The notes below the pieces were generated by a model that made no database searches, was not told the DNA's origin, and saw nothing but the letters and a program-made list of their open reading frames with translations. DNA of 64,000 bases from a virus. Positions 39,411-64,000 of the stretch are shown piece after piece. A program made the translations under genes and the position numbers. Numbering within the stretch: the stretch's first letter is position 1; each line of letters starts with the position of its first letter. The DNA lies in the IMG/VR virus record IMGVR_UViG_2909435987_000002. One strand, 5' to 3'.

Positions 39411-39444
39411 AATAGGCGGCTAGATTAGCCGCCTATTTTATTTA
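39410..39444. terminator. Bidirectional terminator between the convergent SWIM and portal genes
   Basis: AGGCGGC-tagatta-GCCGCCT flanked by A/T runs. Confidence 0.65.
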
Positions 39445-45000: not shown

Positions 45001-48000
45001 ATTCTATTATTAGTCAATTCATAGCTCTTATGGGTATGGATGAGTTTGCTGATTTAAGATATGACGTTATTAACGCTAACTCTAATAGCTTTTATAGAAA
45101 AGGAATTGAGCAGGGTATAAAAGAAGTTAGTAATAGTAAGTTTGAGGATAGATATTTATATGGACAAATAAATACTTATAGTGGATCTCAAGGAAGTAGA
45201 AAAGTTCCTATATATGGTTTTGATAGAGGAAGAGAAAGAGATGTTCGTATTATTAATAGTCAAGGAGGGCTAGCTAGTTTAGCTTTACTTAATTCTCCAT
45301 ATGCTTTTGGGCCTTCTAGTGATTTAGGTAGAGGAGACTTAGCTTTCTTCTCTGTAGCTGAAGGAGGTGGATCTAGAGAAATAGGTAATATTGGAGATGA
45401 TCTAACTAATGAAGCTTTACTTCCTTTCCATAGACATGCTGGTGTGGGTCATTTAACTCTTATGGATACTATAGAAGATAGTGGAGTTGGTGCCATATTG
45501 AAAGTTAGTGAAGCGGCTGATTATGCTAAAACTATTCAACATTTAGGTGGTGGTTTTGCTAGTAAGACTGGAGAGGATTATGTTGAAAGATTGAGAGAGA
45601 TGAGTGGAGAGGATGATACTTTCCTTATGTTTTACTTTGACAGAATTGGTAAGGCTTCTCAAATTAACCAAAGATTAAAGAATGTTGGTGGTACTAGACC
45701 TCTTATGGATCTAACTATGGAATACCAACAGCTTATAGATACTATGAAGGCTGTTAAGTATAAGAATAAATTTAGTAAGGGTTCAGTTAATGTGGCTACC
45801 AGTGATCAATTAAGAGCAGCTTATCTAGATGATCTAAGAACAGGATTAAAAAGTATTGGTAAGAGTAGTGATTTAATAACTAGCGATTATGCAATAGGAG
45901 CAGAGATAGGACAACAGTTAGCTCCAGTATTAAGCGCTCAATTAAGTAAGGTAGTAGAAGATATTAGATCACAAGTAATGAGTGAATTTAATTTCTCTAA
46001 AGAAGAAACTTATGGTGGTATAGGTGCAGAAATATTTAGGGCTAAGTTATTAAATGTTAATACCCATGCTTCTATGGATAGAGGAATGATGGCTTCTTCT
46101 AGAAGACATGGTTCTCCTATTATGCTTATGCAATTAAGCGGTGCTTATTCAGATTGGTATTATGCTAATCCAGAATATGGTGGTGAAGATGGCATGAGAC
46201 AGACTTTTATAGATAGAAGTGTTAAGACTGTTCAAGGAAGTAAGTTAAGAGCAACTATTTCTTCTAGTGATCTTATAGATGCATTAGGTATAGATAGCTG
46301 GAATATAATGAATAATGTAATGAGAGAAAGTGGTGAAATTATAGCTTTTGATAATGAGGATAGAAAAACTTGGGTATATAGATATGATGAGAGTAAGAAA
46401 GAATACATAAAAAAGAATGTAGTTGATAGTAGGAAACAGTTTCCCCTTATCAAAGATACTATTGAGAAAGTAGTAGAGAAACCCAGCTTTAGTTATGTTA
46501 GTGCTACTAGTAGTACTGCTTCTTTCTTCGAGGAGAATGCTAGAGAGGTATTAAAAGATATTAGGATATTAAGTGCCAACTTAGATAGTAATGAGATTCT
46601 AGTAGAAGTTAATTATATGAGAACTCTAGTACAAGGAGGAGGTAGAAGAACTGAATCTAGTGCTGGTGGTTTATTTAAAGGTGTTCCAATATTCACTAAT
46701 ATGAATGGAGTATTAGATGAATGGATAGGACAAAGGGGTGGCTCGTTAACTGGAGCTAATATAAGAAGGGAACAGATACAAGGTATAGCTAACCCTAAGA
46801 ACTTTAAGAGTTATTTCTTCTCTCATGGTGCAGAGATATTAACACAAGAAAGAGATAGTAAAGGTAATAGTAAATATTTAAAAGCATTACTTAATACAGA
46901 TACTAGAGTATTAGCCGCCTCATTATTGATGAGTATGGGTAATAGATTTGGTGGTGGAGGTAGTGATGAGGCTATGGTTGCATTAGCTGAATCTGCTAGA
47001 AGAGGAGATTTAGGAGAGTACTTTAAAAATAGATATCAATATATAGCACTTAATTCTGGTAGTACTAATGCCTTAGATATAGCTAAGGCGTTTCTTAAGG
47101 GTATTAATGCAGATCCTACTGGTGAGTCACTAAAAGTATTAAGTGGTAAAGATTCATTAACTGGTGACTTAGGTGATCTAAACGTTAAGTCTATTGGGTT
47201 TATTGAATATGATGATATAGCTAGATCTCTTAAAGGAGAAAGAGGGGCGGCTAATAATCTTAGAGATAAGTTGAAGTTATTATTATCAGATCCTACTAAA
47301 GGAATTATTAACCAAGAATATCTAGCAATGGATAAGAGTGGTAGAGGTAGAGAGTTGAGTATTATAGCTGGGGGAATAGATTTAATGGCGCAGCTTATTA
47401 CTTCTAAGGCTATTACTATTCCTGTAGCAGATGTATTAGGAGATGAGAATACTTTTAGAGAACTAGCTGCTATTGATGGTCAAGCTTATAGAAAGATTAT
47501 CGAGTCTGATAGGAAAGATGAATATGCTCAACTATTAAATTACTTAGCTAATACAAGTCATATAGTAGGTCTATTAGCTCCTACTGCTGCTTCTCAATTG
47601 AAAGTACCTGTTAGTAGTAAAAGTAAAGCCTATTTAGAAGCTCAATATCTAGTACCAGAGGCTTTCAGCGCTCAAGCTAATGTATTTAAGGATAGTGGTA
47701 ATGTAGCTAAGTTAAGAGATCTAGTATCTACCCTATTAGGTGCAATGATGGGCGGCACTGGAGATGAGTTTGTAGGGGCTACTAATAAGCTACAAGTATT
47801 TGATTTAATGGATGTCTATTCTAGAAGTCCATTATTCAAGAGTAAGATGCTAGGTTTCTATCATAGTGCGATAGGTAGTACAGGTCAGTTTGATTCTTTA
47901 AGAAGAAGATATGAACTATTTGGTACTATTCAAGTGATGATGGGATCTACTAGTTTTAATTACACAGAACAAGATAAACAAATGATTGCAAATCTTATTA

Positions 48001-51000
48001 AGAGTAGTAAGGTTGGCAGTATGGAAGATGTTAAAGGATTGTTAGGAGTTCTAGAAAAGAATCAATCAAGAGGTCAGTTTGAAACTACTCTTAGTTTAGG
48101 TATAGAAGGAGTAATGAAAGAGTTTGAAGCTGTATCTACTGAATATAAATTACTTAGTGATAAAGCAGAAGGTATTAGTCACGCTTATTCAGTGATAGAA
48201 GGGATGAGTAAGAGTGGAATGCAGAGAATGGGGTTCTCTTTCCCTCTACTAGAAATAGAAGGAGGTAAGGTCAGATTTAATAAAGCTGTTAAAGTATATA
48301 GTTTTGCCCCTTCTGCTGAAGATACTCGTATTGTAGGAGAACAATATGGGGATCAGATGAGTGAAGAAATAAAAATAATTATGGATGTTTGGGAAGGTTT
48401 AGCAGTAGGGACTCATGTTAATAAATTACTAGACAAGATAGCTGTCATGGGAGATGAGGGAGAAGTAGAAGTGGGATTGGAAGCAGCTAGAGATATTATT
48501 AGGTGGCAAGATAGCGCTATGAATATATTTCCTCTATTACATGGAGGAATAGCTGGTACTAGATTGCAACAGGTAATGGGTAATAAGACTCCTATGGAGG
48601 GAGCTAACTTTACTGCTGCTGGTTCTCTATTAGTTCCTAATGGAGTGTTGGTAGGAATGGATGCTATTCAGAATAAGTTTGGTGGTAAAGCAGCAGAAGA
48701 TAGAAAGAAAGCTTTAGTTATTCTAGAAGATAGAATAGGTAAGAATACTAATAGAATAATTAAAACTAAAAGACAGTTAGCTGAGTTAGAGGCGGCTAAT
48801 CCTTCTATTCCTTGGAAAGGTAAAGACTTTAGGGAGTATATGAAGAATGCTACTAAAGGTGAATTAGAAGCTGCTAGTAGAAGAAATGATTTACTTAAAG
48901 ATTTAGGTTATTATAACGACCATAGAAGATTACTTAGCGCTCAACATGTAATGTTGCATGATGGATTAGGGCCTAAAGGAACAAAACAAATAACAAGATT
49001 AATAGAAGAGTCTACTAAGATTAGAGAAGCTCTTAGTGCAGCTACTAATAATGATGATAAGGAAAGGATACTACTTCATATAGAAGATAGATTAGGTCAC
49101 TATCAAGATTTGAAAGTGGAGAGTTCTATTAGAGAAGGAGATTACTTTGCTAGATTAGCTGCTATTGCAGAGATGCAGATTCTTCAAGTGGAAGCTTTAG
49201 GTAGATTAGGTAGGAATAGTGGTAAGTACGGTGATACTACTATTGAAAAGATGAAAGCTAATACATTGGGTTTAATTAATGCTCCTTCAGTAATAGAAGG
49301 TCTTAGGTTAGGTAGTGGTAGAAAAGGTATGTACATGCCTAAGATGAGAGCTGAATCTCTAGCAGGTGAGATTAGAAAGGGGACTATGAATGTAATAGAT
49401 AGATTTAATGATGATAAGAGAAGTTTGAATGCTCAAGTTATACAAGAGAATATAGATATTGTTAGAGAACAGATTAAGCAGTACCAAACAGATTTAGAAA
49501 CTAAACATGGAGAGTTCTTCTTAAAGAGTCAGCTTAATCAAAAGATACAAGATATGTATTCTAGATTAGATGGATTCCAATCTAGATTAAGCAAGAGTAG
49601 TAGTCCAGAAGAGTTAGCAGATATTAAACATTTATTAAATAGTGATTTATCTAGAAACTTTGTAGAGCTAGATCTAGTTAGGATGAATTCATTTAGAGCT
49701 TCACCTATAGGTAATGAATTTATTACTTATAGTAAATATGATGTATTCTCACTTGAAGATTTAAATAATAGACTTCAAGAGAAAGGTTTTACTATGAGTT
49801 TTAATATAGATAGAAATAAGACTTTAGGTTTATTTCATCCTATAGGATTCTATACTAGTCAAGGCGGTGACTTTGATGGAGATAGTGCGGCGGCTATATT
49901 TGAACATAGTAGAAGATTAGATCTACAAAGAGAACATAACTCTGTAATTATTAGAAATATAGAAGAAAGTATTATTGATGTAACAAATAAGATTAGTAAC
50001 GAAACTGATCCTACTAAATTAGCAGATTTAAATAAAGCTTTAGATAAGTTAGAAAGTAGAAAAAATAAATATATTAATGAGAATAGAGACTTAAGTGTTA
50101 CTCTTCAACAGGTAGAGAAGACTAATAGTATTACTGAATTTAAAGATAAAGCTGCTAGTTGGGTAAGTAATTATCTAAAGATAGATAAGGCTTTTCTAGA
50201 AGGAAAAGATACTAATGTAATATTTAGCTTCTTAGAACATGCCAGAGATTTATTTGATGGTATGAAGAATATAGTTAATAAGCCTATGTTAGAAGGTCTT
50301 ATGGCTATAGGAAGAGATGAGAAAGTAGTTCAAGATAAAGGTGCATTTGAAAGATTAATTATAAGTCATAGTACAGGTAGTGATAATAATTTATATGAAC
50401 TATTAAAAACTGATAATGGATTAAGAGAAGATATTAGACAGAATTTAGTAAAAGCACATCAGAATAAAGATGGGTTTGATAAAGGTTTAACAGAGTATTT
50501 AGGTTCGTTGACTCAAGCTCAAGTAGGCAGTGATGCAATTCAAAAGTATCAGTCTAGAGGGTTAATGGGTGCGGGCATGAATACAGAGAATATGGAGATG
50601 ATGAATAAAGCATTAGCTCAAGCAGGTAGTGTGATATTAGGTAAGACTTATAACACTATGGCTGGGTTATTATATGCTGAATCTCCTATGTTAGCTATGG
50701 CTCATGCATTAGAGAATGATGATCCTGAAGGTACTCTAGGTAATCTAGTAAAGAGAAATATAGGAGATCAGGGATATCAGGATTTAATGCAGAGTGCTAA
50801 ATATGCTAGAGGATACTCCCAAGAAATGGGGGGATTTCTACAAACTGTTAATCAGATTATGAGAGATTCTATTAAACCTAAAGATGCTGCTGGATTCTTC
50901 AGAGAATTAAATGATAAGTTAGATGCCTATAGAAAAGCTAATGAGAAGGATAAAGATAGAATTATACAAGAGTTAGTAGAAGACTTCGGGCCTGGATCTG

Positions 51001-53135
51001 GATTAAAGGCTTTAGTTCAATTAGATAATTTAGTAAGACATATAGAAGGACTAAGAAGAGAAGAGAATGATACTAATGAGAAATTAGCTAATCAAGAGTT
51101 ATTAAGAAAGTTTGGTATTAATGAAGAAAGTCCAGAGTATAAAGAATACTTAAGAAGATTGGGGTATGTAAATCCTAATGGAACAATAAATGCCAGTAGT
51201 TCAGAGGGATTAGAAAAACATGGTAATAAGAATGTAGTACTAGCAGCTTACAAAACTAAGATGGATTTAGTAAGTGTAACTAGTGCATATGCTTTTGAGA
51301 AAGGAAGAGGAAAAGAATTATTATATAAGGGCGGTAGATGGAACAGTCCAGATAGTACTGGTAATACTTTATATAGTATCTTTAAGGAAGATTTAGAATC
51401 AGGATTACCTCAATTTAAAGCAATAGATGAAGCCATTACACCATTAATAGATATAGCTGGTAGACATCTAGCTAACCCTAGTCTAATACCTATTAATACT
51501 CTTAATAGAGACGAAGCTGAATATGTTGATTATATTAAGTCTATGATTCCTGCTCAACATGTTAGTAAGTATGAAGAGATGGATGAGATAGATAAGAAAT
51601 ATCATGCTCATGTTTTCTTAAAGACTAAAGGACAAACAAGCCACTTTGCTGGAGACTTTGGAGAAAAGCTAATTAGCTTTGCTAAGTTCAATGCTAATAG
51701 AGCTGAAGCTTATGGTGGTAACTTTATGGCAGGCGGTAAGAATTTATTATTAAGTAAAGATAGTAGTTTCTTTAATCATCTAATGGCAGCAACTTCAGGG
51801 AAAATAGATAATGAGACTCTAGCATTCTTTATGAATGCTAACGTAGCTACTTTTAGAAGACATACTGGTAAGAGTAATGCTTCAATAGAAGATGTTCTTA
51901 GTGCAATGAATAGTATGGGTAATCTTAATACTAGTGAAGAGAGTGCTAGGATGGCTGAGTTATTAGCCCCAGCATTAAAAGATAAAGAAGTAGCTGAGTT
52001 AATGATGGCTAGAGTTAGACAAACTCAATATGGAATGATGTCTCAAACTGTATTAGAAATGCAAAGAGGCGCAAGTACTGATAATTTATCTGAGATTAAT
52101 GAAGATGATTTAGTTAAACATGTACAGAAATTAGGCGCTAGTAAAGAAACAGCTAGAGAATTTGTACAAAGACATTTAAGTTATTTATTAACTAAGTCTA
52201 TAGCTAATCCAGATAGTAATGGCAGTGAACTAAGTCAAGCAGAAGCAGATTTAAGACAGAAGATGGGGAGAGGATATATAGCACCTAATGTAAGAAATCA
52301 AGGTAGTAATATAAACTTAGGTCAGCATTTAAAACAGACTACTTCAGGTCTAATTAATAAGAATTCTGATATAGGTTTAGAAATATTTGCTTTACCTTTA
52401 TTAGCAATAGCAGGTCAAGCTATTGCCAGTGGGGAAGTTAATCCAGAAATATTCCAACAAGCAATAGGAAATAGTATTACAGCTCTTGCCTATACAAGAC
52501 CTTATCAATTCTCAGGGAAGACTGATTTAGGAAAAGGTATTACTGCTGCTTCTAGTATTGCTGCTGGTACGGCATTTAAAGCTAGGATGGCTATTCAGAA
52601 TCAGGAAGATGGAGATATTGGTAAAGCTCTTACAGGTTTGGCAGTTAGAGAAATAGCTATGAATGCGACTATAGGACTCGTATCAGAAAAGTTTACTAAT
52701 GTGGCTGCTAGAGCATTAGGAAGAGAGAAACATACATTAGATATCAACACATATGAAGGGATAAGGGGTGTGGCTGCTACTGCTTTAGGCGGTATAGCTA
52801 GTGCTGTATTAGGTATGTTAGTAGGTGAAGGGGCTAAACAAATAGTTAATCCTAGTAATCCTAGTGTATTAGAACAGACTCTAAAAAGTGCAAAAGAATA
52901 TCTAAATAGAGTAAAACAAGTATCTAATGAAGAATTACTAGACGATAACTCTAATTTAGAAAGTAGTAATGGAATAGTAGAATATATAACTTATAGAAGT
53001 TATAGTGGTGATCCTGAGATTAATACTGCTACCCAACAAGGTCTATATGCAGAAGATTTAGATAACGAAGGGGTTAGTGAAACATTTCAAACTGATAATA
53101 CCTATGATGGATATCAAACTGAATTAAGTCCTTAA
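42024..53135 (+). CDS. Giant single-polypeptide RNA polymerase-like protein (3703 aa) with a beta-prime-type DPBB aspartate triad
   Basis: Uninterrupted 11.1-kb ORF with a TTG start and an Arg-rich N-terminus (RSLFRRRRSRSYKS). The motif FYTSQGGDFDGDSAAAIFEH (DNA 49869-49883) resembles the universal NADFDGD metal-binding motif. No T7-like HDS motif is present. Confidence 0.55.
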   Translation: MSKYNYRSLFRRRRSRSYKSNPLLNTARFNLLFRSSTPYEYQSQEDLYRGFLNNEYMEMAERRAEESNAEAELAVKRAVLDRAIDIFDASLEEDGLDSNAVYKRLFGAFETRNLFDDNDLDREFSRDLLHDLSKFMRGEEVDNKELIPQYNYIRERERELLDRELLAAPNASKAINDDIERFKERAHGTSSSINTITGGGLNRSKSLLEDINFVNRPGILPAVAMLAEANKEFFIDIFQLQNRTIQDYYITNIINRATAYRESIARGENPDKFSFNIRMAFNLEAPHDVGSMAGILGSNLGFYNKLMRLKDLYKDDIDINVLFADKKSHPKFIVTDNYAILGSQNLTAPVGKSVYQAGSNYEIIKVLHYKQEGYTPDELIEEIRAGRKSAKDIDAQSLLYLQARQVMKRTFNKPNEKNLSSEVSNIGGPVENFNFLKGTLEYIDGAGRRNDARMSMILNQVFLLQYEKDLMFGNKGLIKGEMGPHSQQLFDSRNQYINQKAQVFQKMQRQFLEMVIEGRGVAYVDIRTYRDKVQDPVMDKLSEVGLLKNYNYDLTKLVGDLAVGNTTKERINSLTAELKKYSYKGQALDESMAVQIMAMASGNIQSVNVAMQHGKEWLAEERDKSGKWVPIAAKSGSSNPNMYSGALANNEFEKDLTNWEIDFITANDKVRKLANVQRDRGTFGFGLSRNQEEEMMRDQANAFHEKVNDIRVRRIGQIEYSDVYQGGEWEKQVDRSRLMELHDRLKNLTSDLGVDNIMSVGINRDNHSRAISLSVRLDPSRLGVSGLGPISYKFTTLLNGAGRDEGYVMELNKSKMIGRTEVVNTSGVNLVTGFERDGKQLIVQHGQRVGLSPIESTIALLSSVAIEVGNQALINKPREEFDKYRGNYDAIGSMVVNYLLKMSGVNRKDISSLLDMDGGDLLYGIITKFENRFTGRDGGVLDKVRSLSNISLNDSNRNVQIRNLINTMKLMALNSGTSRAGVLVGGSNFDSSNSIISQFIALMGMDEFADLRYDVINANSNSFYRKGIEQGIKEVSNSKFEDRYLYGQINTYSGSQGSRKVPIYGFDRGRERDVRIINSQGGLASLALLNSPYAFGPSSDLGRGDLAFFSVAEGGGSREIGNIGDDLTNEALLPFHRHAGVGHLTLMDTIEDSGVGAILKVSEAADYAKTIQHLGGGFASKTGEDYVERLREMSGEDDTFLMFYFDRIGKASQINQRLKNVGGTRPLMDLTMEYQQLIDTMKAVKYKNKFSKGSVNVATSDQLRAAYLDDLRTGLKSIGKSSDLITSDYAIGAEIGQQLAPVLSAQLSKVVEDIRSQVMSEFNFSKEETYGGIGAEIFRAKLLNVNTHASMDRGMMASSRRHGSPIMLMQLSGAYSDWYYANPEYGGEDGMRQTFIDRSVKTVQGSKLRATISSSDLIDALGIDSWNIMNNVMRESGEIIAFDNEDRKTWVYRYDESKKEYIKKNVVDSRKQFPLIKDTIEKVVEKPSFSYVSATSSTASFFEENAREVLKDIRILSANLDSNEILVEVNYMRTLVQGGGRRTESSAGGLFKGVPIFTNMNGVLDEWIGQRGGSLTGANIRREQIQGIANPKNFKSYFFSHGAEILTQERDSKGNSKYLKALLNTDTRVLAASLLMSMGNRFGGGGSDEAMVALAESARRGDLGEYFKNRYQYIALNSGSTNALDIAKAFLKGINADPTGESLKVLSGKDSLTGDLGDLNVKSIGFIEYDDIARSLKGERGAANNLRDKLKLLLSDPTKGIINQEYLAMDKSGRGRELSIIAGGIDLMAQLITSKAITIPVADVLGDENTFRELAAIDGQAYRKIIESDRKDEYAQLLNYLANTSHIVGLLAPTAASQLKVPVSSKSKAYLEAQYLVPEAFSAQANVFKDSGNVAKLRDLVSTLLGAMMGGTGDEFVGATNKLQVFDLMDVYSRSPLFKSKMLGFYHSAIGSTGQFDSLRRRYELFGTIQVMMGSTSFNYTEQDKQMIANLIKSSKVGSMEDVKGLLGVLEKNQSRGQFETTLSLGIEGVMKEFEAVSTEYKLLSDKAEGISHAYSVIEGMSKSGMQRMGFSFPLLEIEGGKVRFNKAVKVYSFAPSAEDTRIVGEQYGDQMSEEIKIIMDVWEGLAVGTHVNKLLDKIAVMGDEGEVEVGLEAARDIIRWQDSAMNIFPLLHGGIAGTRLQQVMGNKTPMEGANFTAAGSLLVPNGVLVGMDAIQNKFGGKAAEDRKKALVILEDRIGKNTNRIIKTKRQLAELEAANPSIPWKGKDFREYMKNATKGELEAASRRNDLLKDLGYYNDHRRLLSAQHVMLHDGLGPKGTKQITRLIEESTKIREALSAATNNDDKERILLHIEDRLGHYQDLKVESSIREGDYFARLAAIAEMQILQVEALGRLGRNSGKYGDTTIEKMKANTLGLINAPSVIEGLRLGSGRKGMYMPKMRAESLAGEIRKGTMNVIDRFNDDKRSLNAQVIQENIDIVREQIKQYQTDLETKHGEFFLKSQLNQKIQDMYSRLDGFQSRLSKSSSPEELADIKHLLNSDLSRNFVELDLVRMNSFRASPIGNEFITYSKYDVFSLEDLNNRLQEKGFTMSFNIDRNKTLGLFHPIGFYTSQGGDFDGDSAAAIFEHSRRLDLQREHNSVIIRNIEESIIDVTNKISNETDPTKLADLNKALDKLESRKNKYINENRDLSVTLQQVEKTNSITEFKDKAASWVSNYLKIDKAFLEGKDTNVIFSFLEHARDLFDGMKNIVNKPMLEGLMAIGRDEKVVQDKGAFERLIISHSTGSDNNLYELLKTDNGLREDIRQNLVKAHQNKDGFDKGLTEYLGSLTQAQVGSDAIQKYQSRGLMGAGMNTENMEMMNKALAQAGSVILGKTYNTMAGLLYAESPMLAMAHALENDDPEGTLGNLVKRNIGDQGYQDLMQSAKYARGYSQEMGGFLQTVNQIMRDSIKPKDAAGFFRELNDKLDAYRKANEKDKDRIIQELVEDFGPGSGLKALVQLDNLVRHIEGLRREENDTNEKLANQELLRKFGINEESPEYKEYLRRLGYVNPNGTINASSSEGLEKHGNKNVVLAAYKTKMDLVSVTSAYAFEKGRGKELLYKGGRWNSPDSTGNTLYSIFKEDLESGLPQFKAIDEAITPLIDIAGRHLANPSLIPINTLNRDEAEYVDYIKSMIPAQHVSKYEEMDEIDKKYHAHVFLKTKGQTSHFAGDFGEKLISFAKFNANRAEAYGGNFMAGGKNLLLSKDSSFFNHLMAATSGKIDNETLAFFMNANVATFRRHTGKSNASIEDVLSAMNSMGNLNTSEESARMAELLAPALKDKEVAELMMARVRQTQYGMMSQTVLEMQRGASTDNLSEINEDDLVKHVQKLGASKETAREFVQRHLSYLLTKSIANPDSNGSELSQAEADLRQKMGRGYIAPNVRNQGSNINLGQHLKQTTSGLINKNSDIGLEIFALPLLAIAGQAIASGEVNPEIFQQAIGNSITALAYTRPYQFSGKTDLGKGITAASSIAAGTAFKARMAIQNQEDGDIGKALTGLAVREIAMNATIGLVSEKFTNVAARALGREKHTLDINTYEGIRGVAATALGGIASAVLGMLVGEGAKQIVNPSNPSVLEQTLKSAKEYLNRVKQVSNEELLDDNSNLESSNGIVEYITYRSYSGDPEINTATQQGLYAEDLDNEGVSETFQTDNTYDGYQTELSP

Positions 53136-54027: not shown

Positions 54028-54863
54028 ACTGGAGAATTAGTCCTATTATTAAAATCGGATATTATATTGAAAGTAGTATTACTATTCCAAAAGTTATCTA
54101 ATAAATTAGGTAATCCTGGCGGCTTTAATCTATTAGATAATAGAGTATTACTAGGATGAATAAGGTTTTCCTCACTCTCAGTATTCATAGGAACAAAACT
54201 TCTCCATTTATATTCTCCAAAGAAATCTACTCTCACAGAAGTATGAGAAGTATCAGTCACATCTATTAGTCTTATCTCTAAATATCTACTAGTTAAAAGA
54301 ATAAAAGTAGGATCTACTAATGTACCTTCTTCATTGACAGTATTCTTTAATCTAATCTCTATAGGATATTGACATGTGACTACTGCTCCTAAGGCTTTAC
54401 CAACATCAATAATAGGAAGAGTATAAGGATTTGTTAAAGGACTATATATTACTGGCAGCACATTAGGTTGGGATAAAAGTGGTCTAGACCACTCAACATT
54501 TCCTATGTTCTTATGAGCATATACAATCTCCTGTCTAATCCTAGAAGTGGTTTTCTTCCATCTGAGAAAGTCTTGATTAGGATTACCTACTACAAAAGAA
54601 GAGTAAATAGATTCTAGAAAGTAGTTACTTACTTGATAATAGAAAGTACCTTCATATTCTTCTAGATAAGTTCCTAATTGAATAATATCTAGAGTTGAAT
54701 CAACATTAGGAAAAGATAGAACGTTATATGTTCTACTATATGGATTCCTATCTAGTGTTGTTAATTGAGTTCCATAATCCCAAGTGGTATCTATCTCCGA
54801 GTAATACTTAGAGATAGATGCCGATAATATTTCTGGTATATTAACTTCTTTAATATCTGTCAT
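54018..54863 (-). CDS. Hypothetical protein (281 aa), possibly virion-associated
   Basis: Start coupled to the PAAR gene's stop. Confidence 0.4.
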   Translation of the reverse strand: MTDIKEVNIPEILSASISKYYSEIDTTWDYGTQLTTLDRNPYSRTYNVLSFPNVDSTLDIIQLGTYLEEYEGTFYYQVSNYFLESIYSSFVVGNPNQDFLRWKKTTSRIRQEIVYAHKNIGNVEWSRPLLSQPNVLPVIYSPLTNPYTLPIIDVGKALGAVVTCQYPIEIRLKNTVNEEGTLVDPTFILLTSRYLEIRLIDVTDTSHTSVRVDFFGEYKWRSFVPMNTESEENLIHPSNTLLSNRLKPPGLPNLLDNFWNSNTTFNIISDFNNRTNSPVWI

Positions 54864-55120
54864 TAGCCTATAAAAGTATCACTAGAAGAAGTTTGAATAA
54901 TTCCACATATAACTCTATCTTTGATACGAACTGCGGGTCTTCCATCTACAAAAGTAGTACGAGATCCAGTAACAGCAATTCCAGGTAGGGAACTATCAAA
55001 TAATCTAACTTGTCCTCTACCATTTACAAAAGTTGTTCTAGAAGCAGATATAAAAGGCCCGCTAACTCTACCTCTACATATCTTCCTAACAAAGTCTCCT
55101 AATCTAACTGCTGATTGCAT
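54863..55120 (-). CDS. PAAR-repeat spike-tip protein
   Basis: Three PAAR-like repeats: AVRLGD, QVRLFD, and GSRTTFVDGRPAVRIKDRVICG. Confidence 0.65.
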   Translation of the reverse strand: MQSAVRLGDFVRKICRGRVSGPFISASRTTFVNGRGQVRLFDSSLPGIAVTGSRTTFVDGRPAVRIKDRVICGIIQTSSSDTFIG

Positions 55121-55723: not shown

Positions 55724-55786
55724 AGATCTATTTGTTAATAGTTGATTAATAATATATATTATACTAATTGATTAATTAACTATTGA

Positions 55787-56299
55787 GTGGGAAGTATGCA
55801 TCCTATTGAAGAGAGCAGTTTATTACAAGATGTCGATTCCTTAAAGAGACAAGTTAAGTTACTTGAAACTAGAGTACAAAGATTATCAGAAGAGAAAGAA
55901 GCTTTAGGTAAATCTATTCAATGCTTAATAGATAATAGTCATGAAATAGTAGTAGAGAAAATTAACTTAGCTAGAGAAGTAAATATTCTTAAAGAAGATA
56001 AGAACTATATATATAGAGAAAGAAATATACTTCTAGCTTTCTTGTGTAATATTCTATATTCAGCAGATCCATCTATAGTTGAAAGATGGTTACATCCTGT
56101 TGAAGATAAAGATTGGGAGGAAGATTGGAGAAATATTATTGTTATTCAATTAAATGAAGAGGAACAATATAGTTGGCATATCCATGATAGTGAACTATAT
56201 CTATTCCATTGGTTACCTCTTAGAGAGAATAAATGGAATGGGCATACAACTGAAGATAAGTATAGAAGAATAATAAACTATGTAATGAATATAGAATAA
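55787..56299 (+). CDS. Hypothetical protein with N-terminal coiled coil (170 aa)
   Basis: ORF followed by the hairpin CCGTA-N7-TACGG plus TTTCTT. Confidence 0.45.
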   Translation: MGSMHPIEESSLLQDVDSLKRQVKLLETRVQRLSEEKEALGKSIQCLIDNSHEIVVEKINLAREVNILKEDKNYIYRERNILLAFLCNILYSADPSIVERWLHPVEDKDWEEDWRNIIVIQLNEEEQYSWHIHDSELYLFHWLPLRENKWNGHTTEDKYRRIINYVMNIE

Positions 56300-57317: not shown

Positions 57318-57600
57318 ATGTTTAGGTGGCTGGCTAGATTATTAAAGTTAGATACTTTTACTGAAAGAACAAAAGTATCTACTGATAGAATGGGTGACTT
57401 GATAGATTACTATAGGGAAGATAATGATAACTATAGATATAAGTCTTATCTATAGGGAAGATAATGATAACTATAGATATAAGTCTTATCTATATGAAGA
57501 TGTAAATAATGAAGGCGGGCACATTAGACTTACTATAGTAGAGACTATAGATGATGATGGAGAAATTGTTGATAGAGAAAGTACTTTAACTGAAGAATAA
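57318..57600 (+). pseudogene. Small acidic paralog-family member disrupted by a 40-bp tandem duplication (premature TAG at 57453-57455)
   Basis: Removing one 40-bp copy restores an 81-codon ORF (MFRWLARLL...YLYEDVNNEGGHIRLTIVETIDDDGEIVDRESTLTEE) that ends at the TAA at 57598-57600. Confidence 0.55.
57411..57490 (+). repeat. Perfect 2 x 40-bp direct tandem repeat (tatagggaagataatgataactatagatataagtcttatc)
   Basis: Copy 1 is 57411-57450 and copy 2 is 57451-57490, identical by eye. Confidence 0.85.
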
Positions 57601-57607
57601 ATAGAGT

Positions 57608-57637
57608 GGGCGGCTAGTTATGCCGCCTGTTTTATTA
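57608..57637 (+). terminator. GC-hairpin terminator (GGGCGGC-tagttat-GCCGCC + TGTTTTATT)
   Basis: Perfect 6-7 bp GC stem followed by a T-tract. Confidence 0.65.
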
Positions 57638-57666
57638 AATTGCAAAAGTAGAATTTAAGGCAGTGT

Positions 57667-57873
57667 ATGTTCAAAGCAGTAGGTAGAATGTTTATGTATC
57701 TGCTAATTAATAGAACTCAAGATACTCATGAAGTTGGAAGTGAACATGAATCCGTAGCAGACGCAATAATTGAAGGCGTTCAATACTACAGTTATGTAAC
57801 TGAAACACATAAAGATGAAGCTGAGTTAACTATTATGGAAGGTATTTATTTTATACCAGAGGAGCAAGAGTAA
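57667..57873 (+). CDS. Small acidic protein, paralog family (68 aa)
   Basis: Shares the S/N-x-ADA(I/L/M)I-E/D...Y...E...(I/V)xEE pattern with 60979, 63579 and 63776. Confidence 0.5.
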   Translation: MFKAVGRMFMYLLINRTQDTHEVGSEHESVADAIIEGVQYYSYVTETHKDEAELTIMEGIYFIPEEQE

Positions 57874-57874
57874 T

Positions 57875-58459
57875 ATGCAAGTATCAGTTAGAGCAGATTC
57901 TATTCTAATAGACGAAGATAAAAGACTATCTAATTTAGAAATACTAGATTATATATTCTCTTTAAAGTTCTATAAAGCTCCTAAGTTTGAGAGAGGACTT
58001 TATGTTCCTTTTTCTACTAGAGAAGTAGAACAACATTTAAGTAATAAATTTAGTAAATATATATTTGGTATTGAGTTAGCTTATGGCAAAAGAGATAGGA
58101 CTAAATATATAACTAGACTTCCATTAGATAGTTATACATTCACAGAACCTTATAGCGAGTGTGATGTAGATAAAGATAATATCTACTATAAGAATATAGA
58201 AGTTATTAGACAGCCTAATCAGAGTCTACTAACTGTTAGTGGCGTTAAACAACTCATAGTTGGCGGCAATAGTTATACTAACCTAACTCAATATATGGCT
58301 CTTAGAGTAGTTAGAGCAGGAGATGGATTATTTAGATATGAAGAGATAGAAGAAGCCTATCAAACCTCACAGTATATAAAAGATATGTGCTACGGGAGGA
58401 TTAATGAACAACGTAATAATATGCCTAGTAGTAGTGACAGTAGGGATGGTGTTAACTAG
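57875..58459 (+). CDS. Hypothetical protein (194 aa)
   Basis: ORF. Confidence 0.45.
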   Translation: MQVSVRADSILIDEDKRLSNLEILDYIFSLKFYKAPKFERGLYVPFSTREVEQHLSNKFSKYIFGIELAYGKRDRTKYITRLPLDSYTFTEPYSECDVDKDNIYYKNIEVIRQPNQSLLTVSGVKQLIVGGNSYTNLTQYMALRVVRAGDGLFRYEEIEEAYQTSQYIKDMCYGRINEQRNNMPSSSDSRDGVN

Positions 58460-58763
58460 AAAAGGTACTAATGAGAGTTATAGAAAAGCACACACAGCTC
58501 ACAGAATGTTTAAGTTCAGATTAAATACATCTACATTATCTTGGGAGGATAGACAGACCCTCTTAGAAGAGAAAACTAGAGAAAGATTAAGTTATCTAGA
58601 AAAAGAAGGGAAGACAATAGAGAGATTATTTATCCAAGTTCTTAATGATAATGAAGATGAATATGATGAATTAATTGACTTTCTAGATGAAGACTCTCCT
58701 AATAATAGTGTTCTACTAGGTATAGATCCTATGTGGGATGTCTATGGTAAAGAAGAAGATTAG
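58404..58763 (+). CDS. Hypothetical protein (119 aa; the start may instead be the ATG at 58446)
   Basis: GGGAGGA RBS 4 nt before the ATG at 58404. Overlaps the upstream gene by 56 nt in another frame. Confidence 0.4.
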   Translation: MNNVIICLVVVTVGMVLTRKGTNESYRKAHTAHRMFKFRLNTSTLSWEDRQTLLEEKTRERLSYLEKEGKTIERLFIQVLNDNEDEYDELIDFLDEDSPNNSVLLGIDPMWDVYGKEED

Positions 58764-58769
58764 TGATTA

Positions 58770-58797
58770 GGGCGGCATAACTAGCCGCCTATTTTAG
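58770..58797 (+). terminator. GC-hairpin terminator (GGGCGGC-ataacta-GCCGCC + TATTTTAG)
   Basis: Same stem as the 57608 terminator. Its loop is the exact reverse complement of that one. Confidence 0.65.
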
Positions 58798-58820
58798 TTA
58801 AATAGACTAGTGAGGTATAT

Positions 58821-58973
58821 ATGATTGATCCAGATAGACCTAGTGATCCAATAGTAATAATAGATGATCCTAACTATTGGACTCTACCTAACTTACTAGG
58901 AAACTTATTAGCAGCAGCTCAAGAAGATCATCCAGAACAATTTCCTAGAGATGAAGATAGTCCAGAGTATTAA
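58821..58973 (+). CDS. Small acidic ORF (50 aa), not in the ORF track
   Basis: ATG preceded by TGAGGT. Encodes MIDPDRPSDPIVIIDDPNYWTLPNLLGNLLAAAQEDHPEQFPRDEDSPEY. Confidence 0.3.
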   Translation: MIDPDRPSDPIVIIDDPNYWTLPNLLGNLLAAAQEDHPEQFPRDEDSPEY

Positions 58974-58983
58974 GGTAAGTTAA

Positions 58984-59013
58984 TATATTTCTATTGAATT
59001 CAATAGAAATATA
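58984..59013. promoter_or_regulatory. 30-bp perfect palindrome overlapping the RBS and start of gene 59013
   Basis: ATATATTTCTATTGA|ATTCAATAGAAATATAT, centred on GAATTC. Related half-site to the 37544 palindrome (TCTAT(AT)TGAA). Confidence 0.6.
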
Positions 59014-59390
59014 TGTACTGTGGTCTTATGATTCTCTCTTCTCAAGAGATTAAGTGCCCTTTTATAGATTTAACTTTCTATAGAAAGGGACTTATTAATG
59101 AAGGATTCAAAGGAAAGTTTGAAGTAGTACAGAGAATTAGAAAAGGTAAATTTCATTTCACTGGCTGCTTCTGTGAAGAATTATTTGAATACTTTGATTC
59201 TAGTGAACACTGGGGACTAATAGAAATGCAAGATGAGGTAGAAGAAATAACAGCTATATATCTTAGAACTAATAGATTTATGACGGGGGTAGAAGTTAGT
59301 TCTACTAGAGAACATAATATCTACTTTCTAAAAGAAGAAAGAATCAACAGTGACTCTATTGTTAATGAAGTAATAATTGTGAGGGATTAA
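59013..59390 (+). CDS. Hypothetical protein (125 aa)
   Basis: ORF whose start codon overlaps a 30-bp perfect palindrome. Confidence 0.45.
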   Translation: MYCGLMILSSQEIKCPFIDLTFYRKGLINEGFKGKFEVVQRIRKGKFHFTGCFCEELFEYFDSSEHWGLIEMQDEVEEITAIYLRTNRFMTGVEVSSTREHNIYFLKEERINSDSIVNEVIIVRD

Positions 59391-59396
59391 ATAAGT

Positions 59397-59876
59397 ATGA
59401 GGTTGTATAGATTGAGAAGTTTAGTTAGATATATAGCTGCAATATTTCTGTCTTGCTTATCTTCTGGATTAATTGAGATTCTTCACACATTACTCATAGA
59501 CTCCCATTATCTAAAAACAGAGACTAATTTGCTTACAAATATATTTTACGGTCTGATTATAGGAGGCATCAAAGGATATTTAGTTTGCTATGCTTTCATG
59601 CTTACGTATGTAAGAGTATGTGGTACTATGACCAGATTTTCAAAGAATATATTAGTTTTTGTCTTAGCATTTATGGGTACTACTGATATATTAGCTATTG
59701 CCTACACGATATTTAATAAGTATCACGATTCAACTTGGATATGGATAGATATCAACAATATTATTGGAGCTTTGATAATGGTATACACATCTATTGAAAT
59801 TTGCAAATATAGTCATAAAGAGTTGCCTAATAAAATAAATAGTATGTGGTGGGATCTATTTAATACCCTTAGTTAA
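59397..59876 (+). CDS. Polytopic membrane protein (about 4 TM)
   Basis: Four hydrophobic segments. Immediately upstream of the SPFH gene. Confidence 0.5.
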   Translation: MRLYRLRSLVRYIAAIFLSCLSSGLIEILHTLLIDSHYLKTETNLLTNIFYGLIIGGIKGYLVCYAFMLTYVRVCGTMTRFSKNILVFVLAFMGTTDILAIAYTIFNKYHDSTWIWIDINNIIGALIMVYTSIEICKYSHKELPNKINSMWWDLFNTLS

Positions 59877-59938
59877 TTTGTTTAGTGGTTCACACTCATC
59901 CATAAAAAGTGTAGTACACATTTCTAAAGAGCAATAAG

Positions 59939-60694
59939 ATGAAAGTATTTCAGTTAATTAGTTTGTTAGTAGGTTCTATTCTGGCTTTATTGATTTGGTT
60001 TGGTTCTGTAATAATCGTTCAGAGCGGTGAGGTTGGAGTTGTATATCACTTTGGTAAGGTTAGTCAAGAGACTCTTAGCCCCGGATTAAACTTTGCAATA
60101 CCCTTTATCACTAGTGTTAAAAGCTTAGATGTTAAGACACAAGCTGATGAAGAATTGTTCGTTACTTTATCTAAAGATGGTCAAGAGATAAAGGTAGCTG
60201 CTACAGCAACTTATAATAATAATCCTTTAGTTGCCGCAGATACAGCTATTCATATTGGTCTAGAGAATAGTTTGATTAAGAAGATAGCTCTCCAGCCTAA
60301 ACTTCTTTCTACTGTAAAGACAGTAATAGCTGAATACACTATGAATGACATAATTTCTAACCAAGCTGGTATCTCTGAAGAGATTGAGCAAAGGATTATT
60401 AAAGAGCTAGAAAGTCAGCCAAATATAATATTGACTGCTATTAATGTTACAGGAATTAGCTTAGATCCCCAAGTACAACAGTCAATAGAAAATAAAGTAA
60501 TAGCTTCTCAGAAGAAAGAACAGGCTAAGATTGATAATGAGACAGCTCAGATTACAGCCCAGACTAATAAAGTGTTAGCTGATAGTCTATCTCCAATCCT
60601 AGTTCAACAGCAGGCTATTGAGAAATGGAGCGGTCAATCTAGTGTATTTAGTTTAGGAGATAATAAACAACCTGTAATTGTTCAAAGTAAATAA
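59939..60694 (+). CDS. SPFH/band-7 (stomatin/prohibitin/HflC-like) protein with N-terminal TM anchor
   Basis: N-terminal TM helix followed by VQSGEVGVVYHFGKVSQETLSPGLNFAIPFITSVKSLDVKTQ, typical of the SPFH domain. Confidence 0.65.
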   Translation: MKVFQLISLLVGSILALLIWFGSVIIVQSGEVGVVYHFGKVSQETLSPGLNFAIPFITSVKSLDVKTQADEELFVTLSKDGQEIKVAATATYNNNPLVAADTAIHIGLENSLIKKIALQPKLLSTVKTVIAEYTMNDIISNQAGISEEIEQRIIKELESQPNIILTAINVTGISLDPQVQQSIENKVIASQKKEQAKIDNETAQITAQTNKVLADSLSPILVQQQAIEKWSGQSSVFSLGDNKQPVIVQSK

Positions 60695-60716
60695 TCCCAC
60701 TTGATTCATTAATACA

Positions 60717-60741
60717 TTAGCTATATAGTTCTTATAGCTAG
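60717..60741 (+). promoter_or_regulatory. Hairpin 23 nt after the SPFH gene stop
   Basis: TAGCTATA-tagttct-TATAGCTA. Confidence 0.35.
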
Positions 60742-60978
60742 TGTATTCTAGAAGGTAGTAACACAGAGGAATATTATTCCTTTAGACTCTAGTATTAAGA
60801 TTAGGGAGTATTAGGTTTACTACCACATGGCAGATATTAAGCTACAGTGCGCTTACCTGGCTCATAACCAGAGTTCTTTACTAGGTGCAACTCCTAGGTC
60901 TGCTTTTAAATATTGAATATTACTTTCTCATATATTTCTTCATTAATAAGGTAGTAAGTAGTTACCTTATAGAAGAAT

Positions 60979-61176
60979 ATGAATAAGTGGTTTAGGATTT
61001 TATTTATCAATAGAAAGAATAGAAATCTAGATTGCTATAGTGGATTATATAGTGAGCCTAGTGATGCTCTTATTGATGCCGCCCTCTATAGAGAGAATCT
61101 AGAGGGTGAAGTAGATTGTTATTTAGTAGAAGAAGATCTAGAAATAGAAGGAGAAATTAATGTCTATCAAAATTAG
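60979..61176 (+). CDS. Small acidic protein, paralog family (65 aa)
   Basis: YSEPSDALIDAALYRENLEGEVDCYLVEEDLEIEGE. Confidence 0.5.
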   Translation: MNKWFRILFINRKNRNLDCYSGLYSEPSDALIDAALYRENLEGEVDCYLVEEDLEIEGEINVYQN

Positions 61177-61494
61177 AAAGTCTGTATTTGAAACTAATTC
61201 CTTAATATTGGGGCGTTAACTTAGTGATAAGTTAAATGAATTGGATAAATTGCTGGAAGGCCTTCATATATGTACGGTTAATCAGCAGCCAAGATAGTCT
61301 TAGGTTAAAAGAGACTATAGGGTTCAGAGCATAGAGGTTGAGCCTAACAATAATACCTCCACGAACATCCAACATCTTTATAAGATGATGATATATGCCG
61401 AACTTACAAGATGATAAATTGTAAGAAGTAAAGATAAAAAGCTTTACGATAACAGAACGCAAGTAGCCATAGTCTAGCTATTAATACTACAGAC

Positions 61495-62220
61495 ATGTTA
61501 CTAGATACTATTATTCCAGATAAGAATGGAAGAGTAATTATTAATAGCGGCAAGTTTGGTTGGGAATGGAATAAGTTTAATGATGCATATACTAAAGCTA
61601 GTTATGCTCTTACTGCTCTTTTATATGTTGATTTACCTCTTATAGAAGAAGCTACTCAGAATCTACATGACGTTATTAAAGAGCAGACTCTAAGTGAAGA
61701 AGTAGTACTTAATCTACCTAGTGAAGATTGGGATAGTCGTAACTATGGTTATATAGATCATCAATCAGTAGAGAGGGGTCAGATGAATGCAGTTCTATTA
61801 GATAAGAGTAAACTGCATAACTTTATCTTCAATAAGAAGAGTTGGTTATTTCTAGGTAATGATAATGAAGAGGCCCCCAATAAATTCTATGATACTGAGG
61901 ATAAAGTATATAATTGGAAATTAGTCTTTACTAATTATCCTAGTATTACTCAATGGGAGTTTGAAGAATTTCCTGATAGAGATAAACTAATAGAAGCTAT
62001 TGAGGGATTATGTTTAAGGTTTACTAGAAAGGGCAATCAATATATTCCTGAAGAAAGACCTTATTACTATAGTAGCGATGAAGAGTATTATGAGTTTCCT
62101 TATAACGAAGATAAAAGGAAGGTAACTGATACTACTATTGAGTTTGTAGAAGATATTTGGAGTAGGGATATAGAACCTAGAAAGTTAGTTGTTAACTATA
62201 CCATAGAAAAGATTAAATAG
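61495..62220 (+). CDS. Hypothetical acidic protein (241 aa)
   Basis: ORF. Confidence 0.45.
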   Translation: MLLDTIIPDKNGRVIINSGKFGWEWNKFNDAYTKASYALTALLYVDLPLIEEATQNLHDVIKEQTLSEEVVLNLPSEDWDSRNYGYIDHQSVERGQMNAVLLDKSKLHNFIFNKKSWLFLGNDNEEAPNKFYDTEDKVYNWKLVFTNYPSITQWEFEEFPDRDKLIEAIEGLCLRFTRKGNQYIPEERPYYYSSDEEYYEFPYNEDKRKVTDTTIEFVEDIWSRDIEPRKLVVNYTIEKIK

Positions 62221-62228
62221 ATAGAACA

Positions 62229-63119
62229 ATGGAATTACTAAAGAGATACCAGAATGGAAACGTTCTGGTTTCTTTGTATAAAGATGGCACTCGTCATCTT
62301 GAATATGAAGGAACCCTAGAACTTGAATATCCTTTAAATATTGACATAACTGTTTCTAGTAGATGTAGTAATGGTATAGATCCTAGAACTGGTAAAGCTA
62401 TCTGTTCTTATTGCCATGTAAGTGCTAGAAGGGATGGAGTAGAAGGTGACTATAAAGTCCTTAAGAAAAGGTTATTACCTTTACCTAGAGGAATAGAGTT
62501 AGCTATAGCTGTCAATGAGTTTACTAAGAGACTAATGGAATTCTTAGAGTGGGCTAATGAAATAGGATTTGTAGTTAACTTAACAGTTAATCAGATACAT
62601 TTACCTAAATATAAGGGATATATTAACTGGTTAATTAACCAGGATATAGTTAAGGGATTAGGTATCTCTTATAGAAAAGGATATGAATCTAATAATGTTC
62701 TTTTTCTATTAGAGTATGAGAATACTGTACTGCATTGTATTGCTGGACTAGATAATATAAATACTATTCTAGAAAGTCCCTACAATAAGGTACTAATACT
62801 TGGCTATAAAAATCTAGGTCTAGGTAAAGAGTTCTATGACTTAGATCCTCTTTCTATTGAGAGGAATATAAGAGAGTGGCAAATGTGGTTACCTAAGCTA
62901 TTTGGTAAGAAGATAGTTAGCTTTGATAATTTAGCCATTGAACAACTGAACGTTAAGAGATTCTTTAGTAAAAGAAGCTGGGAAGTATTTTACCAAATGG
63001 AAGAAAGTATCTACATAGATACTGTAGAAGGGATATATAGTCCTTCAAGTAGAGATGTAGATAAGAAAGTTAGTTGGAATGATCTAGAGATTAAAGATTA
63101 CTTTAGGAGTTTGAAATGA
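62229..63119 (+). CDS. Hypothetical protein with a radical-SAM-like Cys motif of non-canonical spacing (C-x12-C-x2-C)
   Basis: ITVSSRCSNGIDPRTGKAICSYCH near the N-terminus, in the position where radical SAM enzymes carry CxxxCxxC. QueE-type enzymes tolerate insertions here. Confidence 0.3.
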   Translation: MELLKRYQNGNVLVSLYKDGTRHLEYEGTLELEYPLNIDITVSSRCSNGIDPRTGKAICSYCHVSARRDGVEGDYKVLKKRLLPLPRGIELAIAVNEFTKRLMEFLEWANEIGFVVNLTVNQIHLPKYKGYINWLINQDIVKGLGISYRKGYESNNVLFLLEYENTVLHCIAGLDNINTILESPYNKVLILGYKNLGLGKEFYDLDPLSIERNIREWQMWLPKLFGKKIVSFDNLAIEQLNVKRFFSKRSWEVFYQMEESIYIDTVEGIYSPSSRDVDKKVSWNDLEIKDYFRSLK

Positions 63120-63565
63120 ATTTAAAGGTTATTAGTTTTGGGGCCTTACTTTTTATTGCATCTATAGCAGTCAATAAATGTAGTATGCCTATAAAGAATT
63201 TAACTGTTTTAAATAATGAAATAGTTTATTCGATAGATAGTAATCAGAACTACTCTATTAGAGATTTAACTGATCAGGTAGCTATATGTTATTACTCTAA
63301 AGATGTATTAAATGTTAGTAGTCTAGGGCCTATCTTAAATTGGGATATTGTTAATAAAATATCCATGTTTCTAGAAGGTCAGAAAGATGCTAGTAAAGTA
63401 GGGGTTACTGTTAAACCTTGGGTTAATACTCTAACTATTCCTGAATGTTTGGCTTCTTTAGAAGAAGAAAAGAATAGACAAGATATTAATCATATCTACT
63501 TAGTAGAGAAAGATAACTTTAGTTGGAAGGAGAGTCTAATAAGACCTCTAGAAAGGAAAGAATAA
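63116..63565 (+). CDS. Secreted/periplasmic protein with signal peptide (149 aa)
   Basis: MNLKVISFGALLFIASIAVNKCS hydrophobic N-terminus. Confidence 0.45.
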   Translation: MNLKVISFGALLFIASIAVNKCSMPIKNLTVLNNEIVYSIDSNQNYSIRDLTDQVAICYYSKDVLNVSSLGPILNWDIVNKISMFLEGQKDASKVGVTVKPWVNTLTIPECLASLEEEKNRQDINHIYLVEKDNFSWKESLIRPLERKE

Positions 63566-63578
63566 AGGGAGTTTAAAT

Positions 63579-63785
63579 ATGAGTGTAAAACTATTTAAAC
63601 CAATGTATACCAATGTAAAAGATGGAAGAATGCATTCTGGTAGAAATTGGTATCAGAATATAGCTGATTGTTTAATAGAAGCCTCTCATTACTGTGATGA
63701 ATTTAGGAAGTATAGAGGCATTTTATTAGAATGTCATTTAATAGAAACTGAGTTATTTACAGATGAGGAAAAGACATGGGAGTAA
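63579..63785 (+). CDS. Small acidic protein, paralog family (68 aa)
   Basis: YQNIADCLIEASHYCDEF...LIETELF. RBS AAGGGAG. Confidence 0.5.
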   Translation: MSVKLFKPMYTNVKDGRMHSGRNWYQNIADCLIEASHYCDEFRKYRGILLECHLIETELFTDEEKTWE

Positions 63786-64000
63786 TCTATAGCTTATTCA
63801 GAGCTGTATTTAGAGTTAAGGGAGAAGAAGACGTATCTAGAACTAGTGAATACTTTTCTAATCCTGCTGACGCTATGATATTTGGTGCTGAATATGCTAC
63901 TGAATGTCAAGAAGAAGATAATGAAGAACTAGAAGTATACATTGTTGAAGAAAGAGATAGCTGGTATCCAATATCAGAGGAAGATGAAGAAGTAGAGTGA
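63776..64000 (+). CDS. Small acidic protein, paralog family (74 aa)
   Basis: FSNPADAMIFGAEYATECQEEDNEELEVYIVEERD. Overlaps the previous paralog. Confidence 0.5.
   Translation: MGVIYSLFRAVFRVKGEEDVSRTSEYFSNPADAMIFGAEYATECQEEDNEELEVYIVEERDSWYPISEEDEEVE

Follow-up and report, generated by a model that had tools for sequence, protein, structure and literature searches.

The 64,000-nt stretch of DNA analysed here (IMG/VR record IMGVR_UViG_2909435987_000002; "the window" denotes its whole length) contains five small acidic open reading frames (ORFs), f1 to f5, towards its end. A preliminary description, made from the letters of the window, had grouped these ORFs as one family of paralogs located in an early region and had compared them with anti-defence or host-takeover proteins such as DNA mimics. 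All five ORFs were found on the plus strand at the positions given by that description (Table 1). Our profile analysis showed that f2-f5 are old paralogs, four in number, from a single lineage-restricted gene family. They are free-standing coding genes, packed tightly against their neighbours or overlapping them; the relationship of f1 to the four is uncertain.

Four paralogous genes and a disrupted neighbour

The pairwise BLAST similarity among the members was weak (E = 1e-3 for f3-f5, 0.015 for f3-f4 and 1.7 for f2-f4), and f1 gave no match. Leave-one-out profiles were run against the 518 six-frame ORFs of the window, and the omitted member was the top non-training match every time. The scores were then compared with those of 3000 composition-preserving shuffles per sequence, using three-sequence profiles with the composition correction switched off. 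The left-out member scored 23-35 bits, whereas the shuffles scored 0 +/- 1.6 bits and peaked at 9-14 bits (z = 14-19). Because none of the 3000 shuffles attained the real profile score of f2, f3, f4 or f5, the similarity among these four is positional and not compositional. The explanation that the ORFs resemble each other merely as acidic low-complexity sequences, in favour of which the weak BLAST E-values and the D/E-rich composition of all members could be cited, is thus refuted for f2-f5 and possible for f1; as an account of the family, we give it practically no chance of being correct.

The invariant columns of the f2-f5 alignment were M1, F8, D32, I35, Y40, E58 and E69 (f5 numbering). 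Pairwise identity to f5 was 22-31%, and the C-terminal tails varied more than the body of the proteins. In keeping with the motifs pointed out earlier, the family has (S/N)xxADAxIxxxxY in its core and xEE in its tail. Codon usage in frame resembled that of the neighbouring genes for all five ORFs (0.16-0.40 bits/codon), and the other frames all gave negative scores.

As had been noted, f1 is disrupted, and we traced the cause to an exact 40-nt tandem duplication (Tandem Repeats Finder: period 40, 2.3 copies, 96% matches; repeat family D1: two copies, 100% identity). As 40 is not divisible by three, the duplication shifted the frame; deletion of one repeat copy yielded an acidic ORF of 80 aa. 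This restored f1 scored 3.4-4.0 bits against the family profile, a score equalled or exceeded by 104 of the 3000 shuffles (p ~0.035). Its single-sequence AlphaFold model (predicted local distance difference test, pLDDT, 63.5), which is weak evidence for a fold, showed a helix at residues 9-18 followed by a three-stranded C-terminal meander, unlike the family topology. The likeness of f1 to the family lies in its size, its charge pattern and its place beside f2. Because f1 scored low on the profile and its modelled topology differs, the family of five that had been proposed is reduced to four: the paralogy held for f2-f5 in the profile and shuffle tests and was not demonstrated for f1. We regard f1 as a pseudogenized small acidic ORF that was inactivated by a 40-nt slippage duplication and that is either separate from the family or unrecognizably diverged from it.

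Table 1. Positions in the window of the small acidic ORFs and of associated features
Feature	Position	Strand	Description
f1	57318-57600	+	Split into 57318-57455 (45 aa) and 57424-57600 (58 aa); restores to 80 aa
f2	57667-57873	+	68 aa; leave-one-out E 1.2e-4; 25.0 bits, 0/3000 shuffles; codon score +0.32 bits/codon
f3	60979-61176	+	65 aa; leave-one-out E 3.8e-6; 23.1 bits, 0/3000 shuffles
f4	63579-63785	+	68 aa; leave-one-out E 4.4e-3; 24.9 bits, 0/3000 shuffles; least acidic, net charge -3
f5	63776-64000	+	74 aa; leave-one-out E 2.8e-10; 35.0 bits, 0/3000 shuffles; most acidic, net charge -17
Exact 40-nt tandem duplication in f1	57410-57489		57410-57449 identical to 57450-57489
GC-rich terminator-like hairpin and T-run	57607-57627	+	Between f1 and f2
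Intron-split gene (predicted)	61160-62220	+	Exon 1, 61160-61202; intron, 61203-61459 (257 nt); exon 2, 61460-62220

A search of the family libraries Pfam, PHROGs, NCBIfam and PADLOC gave no match for the members, and the PDB sequences contained nothing meaningful. A word-indexed search of 5.8 billion proteins retrieved the window's own proteins only, even at E <= 10, and a full HMMER scan of 1.84 billion representative proteins retrieved the four members and one artefact only. P0007, a 1183-aa repeat protein, was rejected as a relative; it is a false positive that shares just the short motif 'NVADA'. Profile scans of ~0.9 Mb of related phage DNA, comprising 112 kb of Microcystis phage Ma-LMM01, eight metagenomic loci with a syntenic pair of genes for 267-aa and 296-aa proteins (described below) and 48 IMG/VR loci (763 kb), gave best E-values of 0.04-1.6 on ORFs that were unrelated upon inspection. 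A tblastn search of 50,697 phage records with f5 and f3 gave E-values of 4-9 only (Vibrio phage V-YDF132, uncultured phage LR745208 and Synechococcus phage S-H34), and neither the S-H34 locus nor the LR745208 locus was upheld by the family profile. The family search covered ~82 kb of the 359-kb contig to which the window belongs. When scored with the profiles of one another, the paralogs reach just 12-35 bits, versus a whole-library threshold of ~35 bits, and relatives as diverged as the paralogs would therefore escape the large searches. The earlier remark that the family is unlike any well-known one was borne out in all of these libraries and collections. As a family of phage ORFans, the f2-f5 genes are new, though ordinary and lineage-specific.

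Predicted structure and charge

The AlphaFold model of f5, built from the four-sequence alignment, served as the family model (mean pLDDT 78.9; predicted template modelling score 0.62; 34 residues at >=90; five concordant models). Its predicted elements were a strand at residues 5-14, a strand at 20-23, a helix at 30-48, a strand at 52-61 and a disordered tail at 62-74. On this model, each member would be a soluble beta-beta-alpha-beta domain of ~60 residues that runs into a disordered, acidic 8-14-residue tail with a conserved x-E-E. The (S/N)xxADA motif forms the N-cap and first turn of the helix in the predicted structure. The conserved residues appear to be determinants of the fold (core hydrophobics, the S-x-x-D helix cap and Tyr40), and the surfaces and tails seem to have diverged between the paralogs. 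The hydrophobic N-terminus ascribed to the family is present in the model as the first beta strand, with interspersed basic residues; it is neither a signal nor a membrane segment.

Foldseek searches with the family model found nothing below E 1 in the PDB. In BFVD, the model matched many uncharacterized phage proteins of 55-80 aa (E = 0.015-0.2; template modelling score 0.5-0.8; identity 8-19%). The BFVD entries A0A482MKE4 (Nodularia phage vB_NspS-kac68v162), A0A6J5LHX8 and A0A6J5T4K3, a DUF7336 protein, share the size, the phage origin and the predicted topology of the family; the last differs from it in that the family has no Pfam DUF7336 match. The anti-CRISPR protein AcrIC8 (PDB 8G9S) was listed among the closest known systems. 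The resemblance to the ClpS adaptor (PDB 4YJM and 3O2O) is generic and confined to the level of the fold, with 11-13% identity and no sequence-profile match. The predicted fold is thus that of a common phage mini-domain, which is generic and does not identify a function.

All five ORFs encode acidic products (isoelectric point [pI] 4.05-5.55; net charge -3 to -17), and the first 20 residues are basic in four of the five. The net charge is -8 to -17 in f2, f3 and f5, and f4 has a net charge of -3 and a pI of 5.55. The DNA-mimic anti-restriction proteins T7 Ocr, ArdA and T4 Arn are, like the family, small, acidic, phage-encoded and non-enzymatic; however, the family has a compact predicted alpha/beta domain in place of an elongated acidic side-chain surface. 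Among the structure matches of the family model there was no protein of the Ocr/ArdA/Arn type. In view of the predicted domain, the lack of such a match and the low charge of f4, the suggestion that these proteins are DNA mimics was not upheld.

Gene arrangement and phage context

The f4 and f5 genes lie in tandem with a 10-nt overlap. The stop codon of f2, the first gene past the terminator-like hairpin, is followed after 1 nt by the ATG of a 194-aa ORF, and f3 shares its last 17 nt with exon 1 of the next gene, which contains an intron. A 285-nt ORF-free gap upstream of f3 (60695-60978, plus strand) contains a weak sigma-70-like site at 60701-60729 and gave no Rfam match. A shared promoter for the members was rejected, as the count of the sigma-70 pattern (43) was close to that expected from shuffles (43.8). 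The hairpin belongs to a family, GGCGGCATAACTAGCCGCC, with copies at 57598-57627, 58771-58800 and 39415-39433 (0 matches expected by chance); its 19-mer has an exact inverted copy at 58771-58789 and a diverged copy at 39415-39433. The two exact inverted copies bracket f2 and the ORFs of 194 aa and 119 aa, and they are probably operon terminators rather than the ends of a mobile element.

A predicted group I intron (RF00028; Rfam span, 61193-61425; 61.8 bits versus a gathering score of 50) splits the gene that follows f3, and not f3 itself. The predicted splice joins position 61202 to position 61460 and removes 257 nt, giving a 267-aa protein that reads FETNSSSSHSLAINTTDM and aligns without gaps to its homologues. 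The intron interrupts the most conserved motif of the protein, between FETN and SSSSHSL; the spliced FETNSSSSHSL matches 17 uninterrupted homologues. In the predicted P1, UAAUUCCU/U is paired with GGGGCGUUA and the splice site has the pair U61202.G61211; G61459 is the terminal G, and a 3-bp P10 can form between CAA of exon 2 and UUG beside the guide sequence. Introns in phages of Staphylococcus, Bacillus and Clostridioides show BLAST similarity to it that reaches 73-80% identity in the 3' half and extends to 61454-61457, past the Rfam end. Five related phage contigs (L005, L007, L009, L011 and L012) carry the homologous gene without an interruption. The GenBank annotation at this place gives a truncated 241-aa protein only (H6G33_09510), and the homologues of this downstream 241-aa ORF are 258-268 aa long with the N-terminus MKKIRxGVFETNSSSxHSL. 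We also considered f3 as exon 1 of the split gene, in that the Rfam intron begins 17 nt past the f3 stop and several in-frame fusions can be drawn. This candidate was rejected: f3 is free-standing, because the N-terminus of the homologues lies at 61160-61202 in another frame than f3.

The 267-aa protein, with the motifs ETNSSSxH, IDHQS and GNDN, and the 296-aa protein annotated in PHROGs as an 'Fe-S [iron-sulphur] oxidoreductase' lie side by side as a conserved pair in many large phage contigs (61460-63119, plus strand, in the window); 48 IMG/VR loci hold the first gene of the pair. The 296-aa protein (62229-63119) has the Cys pattern C-x12-C-x2-C and gave no Pfam radical-SAM match. In two of the related contigs, a small ORF (58 aa in L005 and 72 aa in L007) occupies the position of f3 and overlaps the start of the 267-aa homologue by 14 nt. 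These positional counterparts were rejected as f3 homologues (hhalign probability 0.06 against f2-f5). L007, a 262-kb phage contig, carries a small paralog pair of its own (3515-3733 and 9796-10014; MNLYA...ANS(S/T)EEA; 28% identical), one member of which is the ORF in the position of f3.

The family proteins of the window are identical to hypothetical proteins in the range H6G33_09470 to H6G33_09530 of Calothrix sp. FACHB-1219, a strain for which no literature was found. The window corresponds to bases 11319-75318 of JACJQF010000002.1, a 359,493-bp contig of assembly GCA_014696495.1. A second Calothrix assembly at NCBI carries identical proteins, including the split pieces of f1. The GC content is ~31% across the whole window. 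PHROGs identified structural genes for a major head protein (E = 9e-143), a tail sheath (E = 7e-197), a portal and a baseplate; the capsid protein shares 46-49% identity with its counterparts in Microcystis phages Ma-LMM01 and MaMV-DC and in Microcoleus phage My-WqHQDG. A megablast search found no nucleotide-level match of the block to deposited phages. The window carries a myovirus that is related to Ma-LMM01 and is either a phage or a prophage within the Calothrix assembly. Low-GC (~31%), Ma-LMM01-like phage DNA makes up at least 82 kb of the 359-kb contig (bases 3385-85318), which may be a jumbo phage, an episome or a piece of chromosome with a prophage.

The plus-strand block that contains the family begins at 55787 and encodes a WDGH-domain protein, a WecG/TagA glycosyltransferase, an SPFH/Band-7 protein, several ORFs with no assignment and the Fe-S oxidoreductase-like protein, the counterpart of Ma-LMM01 gp128. 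Past the end of the window (L001 10226-19968; contig bases ~75,319-85,061), three small hydrophobic ORFs (57-62 aa) precede a GH5 cellulase and a polysaccharide cluster (Wzy-like protein, Wzx flippase, pyruvyl transferase, two GT2 glycosyltransferases and an initiating sugar transferase). All of these genes lie on the same low-GC, phage-like strand, a cargo that is unusual for a cyanophage or prophage. Elsewhere in the window, a single 3703-aa ORF (42024-53135, plus strand) with a strong positive GC skew of 0.33-0.42 occupies the place of the giant gene gp120 of Ma-LMM01. A PAAR-motif protein of 85 aa (54863-55120, minus strand) is placed at the end of the minus-strand structural block and adjoins the divergent intergenic region at 55724-55786. 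ARAGORN called a 95-nt tRNA-Ser(tga) at 33798-33892 on the plus strand, antisense inside a well-supported minus-strand gene (33362-34453; PHROG E = 4e-56); this call is probably a false positive.

Possible functions of the family

We tentatively favour the interpretation that f2-f5 bind other proteins, frequently host proteins, as small inhibitors or modulators. Small, non-enzymatic, acidic, lineage-restricted and duplicated proteins of large phages most often bind other proteins, often those of the host. The family has no enzyme or known-domain signature and combines its acidity with a basic N-terminal strand, and its restriction to one lineage is compatible with fast-evolving host-interaction genes. 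Having no catalytic features, f2-f5 would act in a stoichiometric manner. Proteins, most plausibly basic or nucleic-acid-binding ones of the host, may be bound by the acidic helix and tail and by the face of the three-stranded sheet that is exposed; f2-f5 would thereby serve in host takeover or counter-defence as small inhibitors or modulators, and the paralogs may have diversified toward different targets.

Several points weigh against this interpretation. The f4 product is only mildly acidic, and a Pfam scan of ten neighbouring ORFs found no adjacent aca-like helix-turn-helix gene or anti-defence marker. The structural model was built on four sequences only. Large phages commonly carry small ORFan paralog families, many of which have no known role in the evasion of defence. 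In Ma-LMM01, the early genes are gp054-gp063 only, which encode unknown small proteins proposed to repress host responses (PMC5780444). These resemble the family as small proteins of a related cyanophage; however, when the Ma-LMM01 region with gp054-gp063 (locus L002) was translated in six frames, the family profile found no homologue there. The block around f2-f5 mixes glycosyltransferase, SPFH, Fe-S-oxidoreductase-like and polysaccharide genes, which are of metabolic and envelope type; on these two grounds, its earlier designation as an early region was not upheld.

A more specific form of the inhibitor interpretation would make f2-f5 a previously unseen counter-defence family of cyanophages, in which each paralog neutralizes a different nucleic-acid-binding immune protein of filamentous cyanobacteria. 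Restriction, CRISPR and toxin-antitoxin systems are very abundant in these cyanobacteria. We consider this form doubtful.

The gene arrangement could instead indicate that f2-f5 serve the phage's own accessory enzymes as adaptor, chaperone or regulatory subunits that are translationally coupled to their neighbours. The candidate partners would be the WecG glycosyltransferase, the 194-aa ORF, the pair formed by the 267-aa and Fe-S-oxidoreductase-like proteins, and the polysaccharide cluster. Every member abuts or overlaps a neighbour, as described above, and the overlapping small ORFs of L005 and L007 point in the same direction; however, those ORFs are not homologous to the family, the 267-aa/296-aa pair is kept in many phages without it, and the genes beside the four members are unrelated to each other. 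We regard such a role as unlikely. It is less probable again that the ORFs are dispensable or decaying duplicates, or unexpressed, with no current function. The visible inactivation of f1 by duplication agrees with decay, and with no orthologues in other genomes purifying selection is not measurable, whereas four copies have stayed intact at 65-74 codons in a 31%-GC genome though they diverged to 22-31% identity, the conserved positions fall on a coherent predicted fold, and the codon usage is like that of real genes.

The f2 protein gave a marginal match to a PHROG annotated as an antitoxin (phrog_36746, E = 0.06), and the strand-strand-helix-strand order of the family is presumably like that of the HicB N-domain. 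These resemblances suggested HicB-type antitoxin-like proteins that neutralize toxin-antitoxin abortive-infection systems of the host, an idea that we consider slightly more improbable than decay: the match is limited to one member and is below significance, HicB gave no match in Pfam or NCBIfam, and no toxin family occurs among the neighbouring genes. The proximity of the Fe-S protein also raised the idea of precursors of ribosomally synthesized and post-translationally modified peptides, which would be matured by this radical-SAM-like protein. The peptides are small and multi-copy, their C-terminal tails are more variable than the body, and f3, f4 and f5 are each one gene away from the Fe-S gene. 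This idea was weakened because the Fe-S protein and its 267-aa partner occur in many phages without the peptides, Ma-LMM01 with gp128 included, and because conservation in the peptides falls on a predicted globular domain and not on a leader. The tails contain no Cys/Ser/Thr-rich cores or GG cleavage motif, the Fe-S protein gave no radical-SAM match, as stated above, and no peptidase or exporter is encoded nearby; we therefore give a peptide-precursor role very little credence.

The present value of these results is one of annotation, namely four paralogs and one pseudogene, and no long-standing question is opened by them. As by-products, the gene beside f3 can be re-annotated as an intron-split gene for a 267-aa protein, and the low-GC Calothrix contig can be recognized as phage-derived. 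If f2-f5 are indeed inhibitors of host proteins, they would add a compact new inhibitor scaffold and would provide a first handle on how Ma-LMM01-type cyanophages meet the unusually dense defences of bloom-forming and of filamentous cyanobacteria.

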